In this document: piece by piece, positions 12,507 to 51,181 of the stretch
How positions within the stretch are numbered: position 1 is the first letter of the stretch
Layout: each line of letters opens with the position of its first letter
Source: Octopus vulgaris
Taxonomy: Eukaryota
DNA length: 64,000 nt
Direction: 5' to 3'
Assembly: GCA_951406725.2 (NCBI GenBank)
Contig: OX597825.1
Location: 1-64,000, forward strand
Notes under the pieces: generated by a model
Told to the model about the DNA's origin: nothing
The model's database searches: none
What the model saw: the letters and a program-made list of their open reading frames with translations, nothing else
Made by a program: the position numbers and the translations under genes

Positions 12507-13654
12507 TTTTGGATATTTTATTTATTTATCTAATTATATTTAAAATTTAATAGTGAGATAGAGGGTAGAGAAGAAATAGAGAAAGAAAGTGTCTATGTAT
12601 TTAGGGAGATTGAGAGCTGAGAGAAGATAAGAGAGTAAGAGAGAGTGAGAGAAAGTTCGCGTCTATATATTTAGAAAGATTGAGAGGCAGAGAGAGGAAA
12701 GATGGTGTGACAGAGAGAAGTGAAGAGACAGAGAAAGAGGCGTGAGGGAGAGAAGTGAAGAGACAGAGAGAGAAAGAAATGAAAGAGAGGTAGTCATGCA
12801 ACAAATAAATATATATCTATATGCAGCTACAAAAGTTCTCTTCTAAGCTAATTATAAATATCTATCTATCCGCAACTACGAGAGAAGTGAAGGGGAGAAG
12901 TGAAGAGACAGAGAGAGAAAGAAATGAAAGAGAGGAGGTCATGCAACAAATAAATATATATCTATCTGCAGCTACAAAAGTTCTCTTCTAAGCTAAATAT
13001 AAATATTTATCTATCCGCAACTACGAGAGAAGTGAAGAGACAGAGAGCAAGAAATGAAAGAGAGGAGGTTGTGCAACAAATATATATATACCTATCTGCA
13101 GCTACGAAAGTTCTACGAGAGTTTTCTTCTGAACTAATTATGACTATATTTCTAATGTTTGCGTCTATATATTTAGGAAGATTGAGAGGCTGAGTAAAAA
13201 TAAAGAAAAATATATACATATAAATAAAGCAACAAATAAATATACACCTATCTAAAGTTGAATAATTATAAAGAGATATAGTGAGAAATTGACAAAAACG
13301 AAGCTGAAACAGAAATTGAAAGATTATTAACGGAATGTAAATTATAAATATATACCTATCCGTAGATACGAAAGTTTTCTTCTAAACTAATTGTGACTAT
13401 ACTTCTAATGTTCGCGTCTATATATTTAGGAAGATTGAGGGGCTGAGTAAATATATATATATATATATAAATAAAGCAACAAATAAATATATGCCTATCT
13501 AAAATTGAATAATTTTAAAGAGATGTATTGAGAAATTGATAAAAACAAAGCTGAAACAGAAATGTGTATGTATATATATATATATATATATATATATATA
13601 TATATATATACATATACGAAGGGGAGACAAACACCCCCAACCGCTGGAACTGCA

Positions 13655-13700
13655 TCTAGGGACACCGTGTTTCAGGATCATTGTCCTTCATCAGCCTAGA
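13655..13700 (-). ncRNA. Type I hammerhead ribozyme (canonical core)
   Basis: Minus strand reads UCUAGG CUGAUGA AGGA caauga UCCU GAAAC acggu GUC CCUAGA: 6-bp stem I, 4-bp stem II, short stem III, GUC cleavage triplet. Confidence 0.9.
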
Positions 13701-14018
13701 GTAGCAGACACCGGTCAGCTGGCAATATCTGTCTCGACTTCGTATCTGTATATATCTATAGTCAGTGAAGTCTATTCACTGATTATCAAAAAAAGAAATA
13801 TTGAGTTTCTAAATCTCTCGTAGAGAGGTGTACGGTGGTGGAGCGATATAATGGTTGTATACTGTCAATCTAACAAGAACGTGACAGTAGGGGGTACACC
13901 ACCGTTATATAGCCCTAGGAGGCATCGAACGCCTCCTGACAGCTTCGACACATTTTATCCTGTGTCCTTATATACACATACGAAGGGGAGACAAACACCC
14001 CCAACCGCCGGAACTGCA

Positions 14019-14064
14019 TCTAGGGACACCGTGTTTCAATATCATTGTCCTTCATCGGCCTAGA
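14019..14064 (-). ncRNA. Degenerate second copy of the same hammerhead
   Basis: Core is mutated to CCGAUGA and the 3' arm of stem II to UAUU; probably inactive. Confidence 0.65.
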
Positions 14065-14680
14065 GTAGCAGACACCGGTCAGCTGGCGATATCTGTCTCG
14101 ACTTCGTATCTGTATATATCTATAGTCAGTGAAGTCTATTCACTGATTATCAAAATAAGAAAAATTGAGTTTCTAAATCTCTCGTAGAGAGGGGTACAGT
14201 GGTGGAGCGATATAATGGTCCCTAGATGCAGTTCCGGCGGTTGGGGGTGTTTGTCTCCCCTTCGTATGTGTATATAAGGACACAGGATAAAATGTGTCGA
14301 AGCTGCCAGGAGGCGTTCGATGCCTCCTAGGGCTATATAACGGTGGTGTACCCCCTACTGTCACGTTCTTGTTAGATTGACAGTACACAACCATTATATA
14401 TATATTTTGTTTAACCATTACCGTTTTCAATTTCGTTTTCGTCTCTCGTATTTACATCCGTCTCGTGCGTTTACATTCTTGTCTTCTACCAAGAAATCTA
14501 ATGCCTACAGCTTAGTTTTTTTCTTGGGGCTGGCCGAGTTGGAGCAAATATCAGAATTGAACAGCCGAAATTTGCGATGATGATTCGGTGTCTGACTGAA
14601 GATTGAAGGCTTCAAATGATTTGTCTGTGTTCCGTGTTTGTCCCTTCCTGTATTTCACGTTCTTTATACATAAAATATTT

Positions 14681-48288: not shown

Positions 48289-48580
48289 AGGGGTTGGACA
48301 AAATAATGCAAACACCTTAGAATTTCAAACAAATTTATTTTAATATTGGGTAGGACCACCTTTGGCAGTAATTACAGCTTGAATTCTACGAAGTATGGAC
48401 TCATACAAAGTTTGAATTGTTTCCACAGGAATTTTTGTCCATTCTTCAGCTAAAACAGTCTCCAGTTCTTGTAGCGATGATGGTGGAGGATATCAATTCC
48501 TTGTTTTTCTAAAATGTACCATAAATGTTCAATAATATTAAGATCTGGGGACTGTGGTGGCCAGATAAGATGTTGAACTT
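48289..48580 (-). mobile_element. Tc1-like transposon right-end remnant
   Basis: Minus strand encodes WPPQSPDLNIIEHLW; terminal sequence ggggttggacaaaataatg. Confidence 0.8.
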
Positions 48581-48598
48581 CACTAGAATATTCTTCGT

Positions 48599-50378
48599 AC
48601 TGAGGTGCAGCAATGTCAAAGGTAGGCTAACTGGGAAGATAGTTTTTGTATGTGGCAAATGCTCTGGAGCATTAACCTCCGAAAATCTGCAGAAAATAAC
48701 TTCCGTCACTTTCCAGGGGGAAAAACTAGAAGTAGTTGATAGCTTCCGTTATCTAGGTGACCAAGTCAGTAGTGGGGGTGGGTGCGCTGAAAGTGTAACT
48801 GCTAGAATAAGAATAGCCTGGGCAAAGTTTAGGGAGCTCTTACCTCTGCTGGTGACTAAAGGCCTCTCGCTCAGAGTAAAAGGCAGACTGTATGATGCGT
48901 GTGTACGAACAGCCATGCTACATGGCAGTGAAACATGGGCCGTGACTGCCGAGGACATGCGTAAGCTCGTGAGGAATGAAGCCAGTATGCTCCGATGGAT
49001 GTGTAATGTCAGTGTACATACTCGACAGAGCGTTAGCACCTTGAGAGAAATGTTGTACCTAAGAGGCATCAGTTGTGATGTGCAAGAGAGACGATTGCGC
49101 TGGTATGGTCATGTGGGGAGAATGGATGAAGATAGGTGTGTGAGAAAGTGCCAATCCTTAGCAGTTGAGGGAACCCGTGGAAGAGGTAGACCCAGGAAAA
49201 CCTGGGACGAGGTGGTGAAGCACGACCTTCGAACTTTAGGCCTCACTGAGGAAATGACCAGTGACCGAGACCTTTGGAAATATTCTGTACGTGAGAAGAC
49301 CAGGCAGGACAAGTGAGCCCAGCCCACTTATGAATGCCTTTCCTCCCTTGGACACAAAGACCTGTTGAGGCAAGCGAAGTCGATATAGAACCTCATCCGA
49401 CGACAGGCACCCATGCCAACCCCTTTGCTTGCGAAGACATGTTGGGGCAAGCGAAATCGAATTGAACCAGCCAGGATCCCTGGTCTGGTGGTACGTAAAA
49501 AGCACTATCCGACTCGTGGCCGATGCCAGCGCCGCCTCCACTGGCTTCCGTGCCGGTGGCACGTAAAATACACCAATCTGACCGTACGACAGGCACCCAT
49601 GCCAACCCCCTTGCTTGCGAAGACATGTTGGGGCAAGCGAAATCGAATTGAACTAGCCAGGATCCCTGGTCTGGTGGTACGTAAAAAGCACTATCCGACT
49701 CGTGGCCGATGCCAGTGCCGCCTCCACTGGCTTCCGTGCCGGTGGCACGTAAAATACACCAATCTGACCGTACGACAGGCACCCATGCCAACCCCCTTGC
49801 TTGCGAAGACATGTTGGGGCAAGCAAAATCGAAATCGAATTGAACCAGCCAGGATCCCTGGTCTGGTGGTACGTAAAAAGCACTATCCGACTCGTGGCCG
49901 ATGCCAGCGCCGCCTCCACTGGCTTCCGTGCCGGTGGCACGTAAAATACACCAATCTGACCGTACGACAGGCACCCATGCCAACCCCCTTGCTTGCGAAG
50001 ACATGTTGGGGCAAGCAAAATCGAAATCGAATTGAACCAGCCAGGATCCCTGGTCTGGTGGTACGTAAAAAGCACTATCCAACTCGTGGCCGATGCCAGC
50101 ACCCCCTCGTTTGGCTTCCGTGCAGGTGGCACATAAAATACACCAATCCGACCGTGGCCGTTGCCAGCCTCGCCTGGCACCTGTGCAGGTGGCACGTAAA
50201 AAGCACCCACTACACTCACGGAGTGGTTGGCGTTAGGAAGGGCATCCAGCTGTAGAAACACTGCCAGATAAGACTGGAGCCTGGTGCAGCCTTCTGGCTT
50301 TCCAGATCCCCGGTCGAACCGTCCAACCCATGCTAGCATGGAGAACGGACGTTAAACGATGATGATGATGATGATGAT
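48599..50378 (+). mobile_element. 5'-truncated RTE LINE whose 3' UTR holds ~4 tandem ~187-193-bp repeats; (GAT)n tail
   Basis: ORF 48525..49316 has FRYLG, HGSETW and RRLRWYGH; cgacaggcacccatgccaaccc is repeated four times between 49400 and 50000. Confidence 0.92.
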
Positions 50379-50408
50379 ATATATATATATATATATATGT
50401 ATATATAT

Positions 50409-51181
50409 ATATTACATTGTATAAAAGGGCTTAGTAAAATAAATTACTTTGCCACATACTGAACTCATTAGAAATAGCAGCCAAAAAAAGATTTTTTAGC
50501 CATTTCTAATACTTAAAGAAAATTTCTCACAGATAGTGTTTACTCAAAATAACCCACGAAGGTATGGGGGTAAAAACATTAAAAAATCACAAGTGCAAAG
50601 ATTATTTGAGAACGTACGTTTCTAGATCAGCCAAATACAATTCGACATTTCTTTCGTCAGCCCAAAATTTCTTAGTTCGGATTTGGAAACACTGAAAGTA
50701 GGAGCATACCCTTTTGGCGACTTTTCACCTCAGAAGATCCGTTCAAACTAACAGTGCCAACAAATTCAAAATATGCAAGCGAAGAATTCCTGCTCTCCCC
50801 CTTCCACCCACGTGGGTCAGACTAGTAAACACCATATTTTATCGGTGAAAACCGAGGCATTAAACAGAGAGAAATGAATTATAATTTCAACAATTGAGGG
50901 TAAAATTAATTAGTTATTAATCAATTTCACCAAGTATTCAGTATGTAAAGGGACCATTTAAGGCGAATTCAAAATATTACATTGTATAAAAGGGCTTAGT
51001 AAAATAAATTACTTTGCCACATACTGAACTCATTAGAAATAGCAGCCAAAAAAAGATTTTTTAGCCATTTCTAATACTTAAAGAAAATTTCTCACAGATA
51101 GTGTTTACTCAAAATAACCCACGAAGGTATGGGGGTAAAAACATTAAAAAATCACAAGTGCAAAGATTATTTGAGAACGTA
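50409..51181 (-). mobile_element. Retrozyme-like non-coding element, 565-bp unit, ~1.36 tandem copies
   Basis: attacattgtataaaagggc occurs at 50411 and 50976. The second copy stops inside HHR stem III at 51181. Flanked by (TA)n. Confidence 0.75.
50605..50666 (-). ncRNA. Type I hammerhead ribozyme (CUGACGA core, GUU triplet)
   Basis: Minus strand reads UUUGGG CUGACGA AAGA...UCUA GAAAC GUAC GUU CUCAAA; palindromic stem III ACGUACGU. Confidence 0.75.

Follow-up and report, generated by a model that had tools for sequence, protein, structure and literature searches.

The first 64 kb of contig OX597825.1 of Octopus vulgaris (assembly GCA_951406725.2), here called the window, carry ten hammerhead ribozyme (HHR) motifs in seven insertions. 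In a reading that we consider probable, three of these insertions are the 3' ends of autonomous Penelope-like elements (PLEs) of the Hydra clade (families B, C and E), and the other four belong to three families of non-coding tandem HHR repeats (A, D and F), or retrozymes without long terminal repeats (non-LTR retrozymes), which were likely copied into (TA)n in trans by a PLE reverse transcriptase (RT)-endonuclease. In the retrozyme identity and PLE-type mobilisation of A, D and F, taken by themselves, we have high confidence. The elements belong to known kinds, Hydra-clade PLE ends and non-LTR retrozymes. What appears new is the occurrence of retrozyme families in a cephalopod, the PLE tail and a short+long rule of inverted insertion on these families, and a spreading family with a U4C core. 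The first-pass annotation of the window had described ten HHR copies in six contexts, all non-autonomous and without evident similarity outside the core. Counted by insertion, however, they number seven: 22925/24710 are the inverted arms of a single PLE copy, while 13655/14019 and 40052/40415 are tandem units. Additionally, B, C and E encode homologous proteins, and A and D have a 55-base stretch in common at 75% identity (E=0.001). The (TA)n setting was described correctly, as all seven insertions adjoin (TA)n.

All ten positions listed in that annotation hold type I HHR-shaped sequence. A strict descriptor matched the window once with the core set to CUGANGA and five times with YUGANRA, four of the five being on the list (shuffle mean 0.34). 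A looser descriptor, which allows a long stem II and a mismatched first pair and was tuned after the window motifs had been seen, recovered eight of the ten, against 0.02 per shuffle in 100 local shuffles. In a 600-kb sample independent of the window (60 evenly chosen 10-kb pieces), it gave 17 matches against 0.55 in shuffles. The two motifs it missed are damaged HHR copies: 14019 has the core CCGAUGA and a broken stem II, and 16994 has one broken stem II pair and a weak stem I. The minimal palindromic stem III ascribed to most motifs is absent at 39888, where stem III has 4 bp and an 8-base loop, and is merely near-palindromic at 13655. One extra match, at 27750-27832, was treated as probable chance.

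The helices of the motifs also covary from family to family. In a structure-anchored comparison, every one of 13 rows has either C-G or U-A at positions 3 and 8. U3-A8, which the family D HHRs use, is described as a natural, active covariant of the hammerhead core (PMC3088659; here and below, statements about cited papers refer to the accessible parts of each). Among seven short-type HHRs, few and related to one another, ten of 14 pairs changed on both sides, a count that none of 500 shuffles reached; slid-alignment controls dropped to 0-2 pairs. Compensatory changes in all helices and at 3-8 argue for selection on the HHR fold. We conclude that the ten motifs are real, putatively self-cleaving type I HHRs, two of them damaged. 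Covariation, here between families, and a motif frequency above that of shuffled sequence, both anticipated in the first-pass annotation, were borne out.

For families B, C and E, searches of the 2.8-Gb genome (227 contigs) found other copies that run upstream into RT and GIY-YIG endonuclease frames. The frame at 23067-24746 belongs to a family C PLE, other copies of which encode RT and GIY-YIG in 842 amino acids (aa). The window copy is 5'-truncated, bears an inverted arm and has lost about 1.8 kb, including the endonuclease; we rejected the idea that C is a naturally endonuclease-free family because the domain is present in other copies. Other copies of B and E continue on their upstream side into related frames (908 aa for B at locus L316; partial frames at L137 and L140). 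The RT motifs RW(K) and DKT are present in B and C, while the N-terminal part of E was not recovered. CxxC, CxH and a CxCx5C linker with a C-terminal GIY-YIG are all found in C and E; family B has CxxC and CxH (two of three copies) without the CxCx5C linker. Thus, B, C and E have the protein-coding body that a retrozyme lacks, and by their motifs and homologues we assign them as 3' ends of autonomous Hydra-clade PLEs. The contexts at 16994, 22925/24710 and 39888 are accordingly not non-autonomous. A Nematis-like reading of these PLEs was dropped after comparison with the Hydra-clade motifs in PMC8557442. A Pfam profile scan missed the Hydra RT and endonuclease entirely, and a search for homologues of the PLE protein returned 567 matches, of which the two named ones are from Argonauta hians.

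The likeness to the endonuclease-bearing Hydra-clade PLEs of PMC8557442 covers the RW and DKT motifs, the CxCx5C linker (C and E), CxxC and CxH around the endonuclease (E/N), an HHR near the 3' end, (TA)n targets, partial tandems and inverted 5' arms. Hydra-clade PLEs are described there as generally shorter than 3 kb, whereas the C unit, which repeats its HHR at 4.4 kb, is longer. HHRs and (TA)n targeting are known for the clade, which includes the (TA)n-inserting Hydra-1_Obim of Octopus bimaculoides (PMC8557442, File S1); our elements resemble it by the described clade features and by (TA)n insertion. The newness in cephalopods that had been supposed therefore does not apply to the autonomous part. 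Family B differs from the described clade in lacking the CxCx5C linker and yet inserting into (TA)n: a long Ser/Asn-rich stretch stands in place of the linker (L316, L317 and L318), and 49 of 63 mapped 3' ends enter (TA)n-like sequence. This sits badly with the linker directing microsatellite targeting. A second, decayed PLE RT fragment lies at 56141-56275 of the window (58% identity to family C over 45 aa).

The units of A, D and F measure 364, 363 and 565 bp, are non-coding and lie head to tail. Among the loci fetched, the longest arrays contain 2.3, 4.4 and 3.0 units, with no sequence between the HHR units; the window copies hold no frame of at least 120 aa. Copies are 97-100% alike and spread over many chromosomes, and monomers are predicted to fold as rods closed by stem I (z of -9.4 for A, -7.5 for D and -6.7 for F). 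Short tandem units that are non-coding and each bear one type I HHR, many dispersed copies and a highly self-paired monomer fit non-LTR retrozymes, and we class A, D and F as such on these sequence features. The claim of several non-autonomous families thus stands for 13655/14019 (A), 25334 and 40052/40415 (D) and 50605 (F), and falls for B, C and E. Animal non-LTR retrozymes (PMC7229834; bioRxiv 10.64898/2026.07.22.740005) are likewise non-coding tandem units of a few hundred bases, each with one canonical type I HHR, and have highly self-paired monomers and PLEs in the same genome. Mussel units of 350-390 bp (PMC7229834) are close in size to A and D. The cores differ, being variant here (U4C in A, U3-A8 in D) and canonical in the described animal retrozymes. 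Moreover, mussel retrozymes occur as abundant circles (PMC7229834); for the present families circles are a prediction. Parts of D and A are matched by contigs of sequencing runs presumed to be RNA, a kind of match unable to show expression, ends or circles. A word search of the accessible text of both papers found no octopus or cephalopods, tails or inverted arms. No cephalopod retrozyme paper turned up in our literature search, which left outside most subscription papers and two supplements (bioRxiv 2026 and NAR) whose species lists may bear on this.

A fourth retrozyme, G (L146:2097-4768; L177:1-764), has a 359-bp unit with a canonical core and seven HHRs in one inverted array; its ribozyme is related to that of D, and it has the same two-end pattern as the families below. 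Immediately ahead of the long 3' end, A, D and G have in common a small stretch that contains a hairpin (13790-13830, minus strand, and 40285-40325 in the window), a candidate protein-binding signal.

The anatomy of insertion links the retrozymes to PLEs. We compared 89 distinct loci (43 A, 28 D and 18 F, after merging overlapping ones), drawn from the best-scoring 20-30 per search and so representing young copies near the window's own. Of 161 3' ends, 145 fall within 4 bases of two fixed sites per family, at 179/232 (A), 175/238 (D) and 202/296 (F) bases after the cut, and 127 of those 145 enter (TA)n-like sequence. The 5' ends are scattered. Among 66 head-to-head arm pairs, 51 join a short to a long end, one is short+short, one long+long and 13 have an end elsewhere; 51 of the 53 classifiable inverted insertions thus pair short with long (binomial p 1.6e-13). 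A, D and F also show the 5' truncation, inverted 5' arm and optional tail of PLE-type insertions. Two fixed 3' ends, inverted arms and (TA)n targets together mean that the retrozymes carry the PLE signature, in support of the PLE-type mobilisation proposed in the first-pass annotation. The two-end pattern is found in autonomous B, E and C as well (for B, ends near 66 and 233, with 16 of 18 arm pairs mixed when one end at 224 is counted). An apparent pile-up of 5' ends at the HHR cut was set aside as partly query bias; a fairer test placed 0 of 30 (A) and 2 of 30 (D) within 2 bases, which is too weak.

Inverted 5' arms and a tail at one end have been described for PLEs (PMC8557442). According to PMC11167929, the tail is defined by two internal start sites of reverse transcription, synthesis in vitro extends both DNA strands, and the protein is predicted to form a dimer. 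Similar to our families, the Poseidon PLE of Anolis in that study has two internal start sites downstream of the HHR, an AT-rich target and priming of both strands. Tails here are 53-167 bases, compared with 30-40 in Poseidon, the near-strict short+long pairing is not stated for Poseidon in the accessible text, and the signature here lies on non-coding passengers and not on the PLE itself. The rule constrains models of a PLE dimer priming both strands. The helper of animal retrozymes has been argued from co-occurrence and from homology to PLE terminal repeats (pLTRs) in vertebrates (bioRxiv 10.64898/2026.07.22.740005, which regards animal retrozymes as non-autonomous sequences of PLEs); in the present families the anatomy of insertion is itself PLE-like, and the searches turned up no pLTR parent.

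The RT in the window had been put forward as the candidate helper. Because that C copy is 5'-truncated and lacks its endonuclease, it would be unable to act as helper itself. Intact frames of both Hydra and Neptune-like clades are present in the genome. An abundant Neptune-like PLE (L292, L297, L319 and L320) encodes 781 aa in one frame, and its 3' region holds two HHR-like motifs, one of which has a U3-A8 core; this family also ends in (TA)n and has U3-A8 cores as in D. Matches of D and F in two GIY-YIG loci were rejected as a helper link, being separate insertions.

In the mechanism we propose, a tandem retrozyme locus would be transcribed, and HHRs would cut the transcript to monomers, probably acting in pairs held together by the palindromic stem III; PLE-type HHRs with a palindromic helix III are thought to act as dimers with low activity (PMC4209133). 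Monomers would close into rod-like circles. A PLE protein dimer would nick both strands of a (TA)n tract, and synthesis of complementary DNA (cDNA) would begin within the RNA at two fixed positions, one for each strand. As copying went round, it would cross the ribozyme junction and yield 1-4 or more units, and the two cDNAs would be joined through their 5'-truncated ends. When the 120 bases after the cut served as query, 58 of 60 matches, from loci not all independent, extended upstream past the cut, so the templates are circles or uncut tandems; of the two, we lean slightly towards a circle.

Several observations weigh against this reading. Rfam scans recognised no hammerhead anywhere in the window at E<=5, or in two 90-100 base pieces at E<=10, and the matches obtained were miRNA models on microsatellites. 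The covariation sample is small and of related sequences, and best-hit sampling left us with young copies close to those of the window. A helper search found no terminus common to A, D, F and G and to B, C, E, a fourth Hydra family (L144, 981 aa) or 30 GIY-YIG loci (mostly 781-aa Neptune-like); the window RT likewise has none in common with the tandem families. Among de-duplicated copies, the core of family A is CCGAUGA (U4C) in 46 of 54, and the textbook core at 13655 is a 1/54 exception, likely a CpG-type change; U4C is said to cut in vitro activity considerably yet to permit viroid infectivity (PMC3088659). One supporting observation is, in addition, two-sided: units within one insertion are more alike than those of separate insertions (divergence of 1.4 vs 2.4%, 0.8 vs 1.1% and 0.9 vs 3.5%), which fits circles without proving them and would follow from a homogeneous tandem source also.

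The fixation of U4C in A while the family spreads also favours a rival account with the same elements and PLE mobilisation, in which the PLE copies an uncut tandem transcript made by read-through, no circular RNA is required, and the ribozyme, in A if not elsewhere, merely rides along as a passenger. Read-through of the cut suits it equally, HHR-dead mutants left PLE insertion unaffected in vitro (PMC11167929), and eight of nine Xenopus retrozyme dimers failed to cleave (bioRxiv 10.64898/2026.07.22.740005). However, the compensatory changes imply selection on the fold, monomers are rod-shaped, and mussel retrozymes of similar size are abundant circles (PMC7229834). Additionally, variants common to all units of one insertion and seen at one locus only (18, 6 and 21 sites) fit copying round one monomer. 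We regard the uncut-tandem account as possible and rather unlikely.

That A, D and F are only pLTR fragments of autonomous PLEs as yet unlocated, and not non-autonomous families, we consider improbable. The fragment reading did prove true for B, C and E, and searches ranked by full units would miss a parent sharing part of a unit. Against it stand the exact head-to-tail units of 363-565 bp in up to 4.4 copies with nothing between HHRs, compared with the 4.4-kb HHR spacing of C, and the sequence upstream of the 60 matches to 120-base queries, which is unit sequence, inverted arms or flank. Local growth of minisatellites by unequal crossing-over from a once-inserted PLE end, the local amplification suggested in bioRxiv 10.64898/2026.07.22.740005, would explain the tandem form; it is very improbable here, as copies 97-100% alike lie on many chromosomes in short, non-integer arrays with two fixed ends and inverted arms, which favours fresh retrotransposition of each array. 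Dozens of young insertions with PLE tail, inversion and target marks in three retrozyme families argue the same.

Returning to circular templates, we tentatively entertain a more specific possibility, in which octopus-type retrozymes would exist as viroid-like RNA circles, and a PLE protein dimer would copy them in a rolling manner, its two subunits starting at the two fixed sites, one per target strand, and in which one thriving family would have traded catalytic speed (U4C) for stability or protein-dependent cleavage. If true, this genome would prove directly, and in countable form, the mobilisation of retrozymes by PLEs, and would be a place to test the function of PLE hammerheads. For that question, the presence in one genome of spreading families with canonical, U3-A8 and U4C cores provides a natural comparison.

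The window is a (TA)n-rich local HHR hot spot. It has eight descriptor matches in 64 kb (1 per 8 kb), whereas the 17 HHRs of the 600-kb sample, found in 10 of its 60 pieces, amount to 1 per 35 kb; the 1 per 6 kb earlier taken for the genome was too high. (TA)n content is 61 bases/kb in the window and 29 in the genome sample. Extrapolation gives roughly 80,000 HHRs per genome (46,000-127,000 if matches were independent, but they cluster). First-look genome candidates, 40 of which were scored for each family, numbered 2275 (A), 1343 (B), 848 (D), 1389 (E) and 2297 (F), and should not be read as copy numbers.

Table 1. HHR-bearing elements of the window and their parts.
Feature	Position	Strand	Remarks
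Family A retrozyme insertion	13605..14399	-	364-bp unit; main arm 14219->13605 (about 1.7 units) and inverted arm 14218->14399
HHR A1	13655..13700	-	Core CUGAUGA, canonical; 1/54 family cores; family form CCGAUGA
HHR A2	14019..14064	-	Family core CCGAUGA (U4C); stem II broken in this copy
Family B, autonomous Hydra-clade PLE (by sequence)	16943..17336	-	Extreme 3' end with inverted long-tail arm; 908-aa open frame at L316
HHR B	16991..17076	-	Long stem II, short stem I (PLE type); one stem II pair broken
Family C, Hydra-clade PLE copy	22887..24910	-	5'-truncated; inverted 5' arm 24683-24910; deletion near 23280 removing GIY-YIG endonuclease
PLE RT frame, C-terminal part	23287..24682	-	DNA 98% identical to 842-aa copy at L143
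HHR C, main arm	22923..23004	-	Looser descriptor
HHR C, inverted arm of same insertion	24708..24789	+	Looser descriptor
Family D retrozyme, second subfamily	25024..25548	+	About 85% identical to 40-kb copy; about 1.4 units; HHR 25334-25375, U3-A8 core
Family E, third autonomous Hydra-clade PLE (by sequence)	38860..39955	+	Microsatellite-rich 3' untranslated end; 5' limit approximate; HHR 39888-39938
Family D retrozyme	40036..40689	+	363-bp unit, 1.8 units; HHRs 40052-40093 and 40415-40456, U3-A8 core
Family F retrozyme	50409..51181	-	565-bp unit, 1.4 units; HHR 50605-50666

The window also holds other repeats. A strongly skewed 391-bp satellite of about 27 copies occupies the contig start (1-10608) and contains no HHR match. 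RT and endonuclease frames of the long interspersed element (LINE) type lie at 14600-16444, 18817-21807, 40840-46286 and 53195-54340, some interrupted by (TA)n tracts, and 14689-16559 and 18542-20405 are inverted copies at 98% identity. A 407-aa frame with cysteine clusters and glutamine repeats (54313-55536, minus strand) is probably the first frame of the LINE at 53195-54340. The 3' parts of another LINE are found at 29622-30380, 48525-49316 and 52500-53222. Additionally, a short interspersed repeat that contains tandem arrays of 61, 123 and 192 bp is very frequent, with many short copies, for example at 16546-16739.

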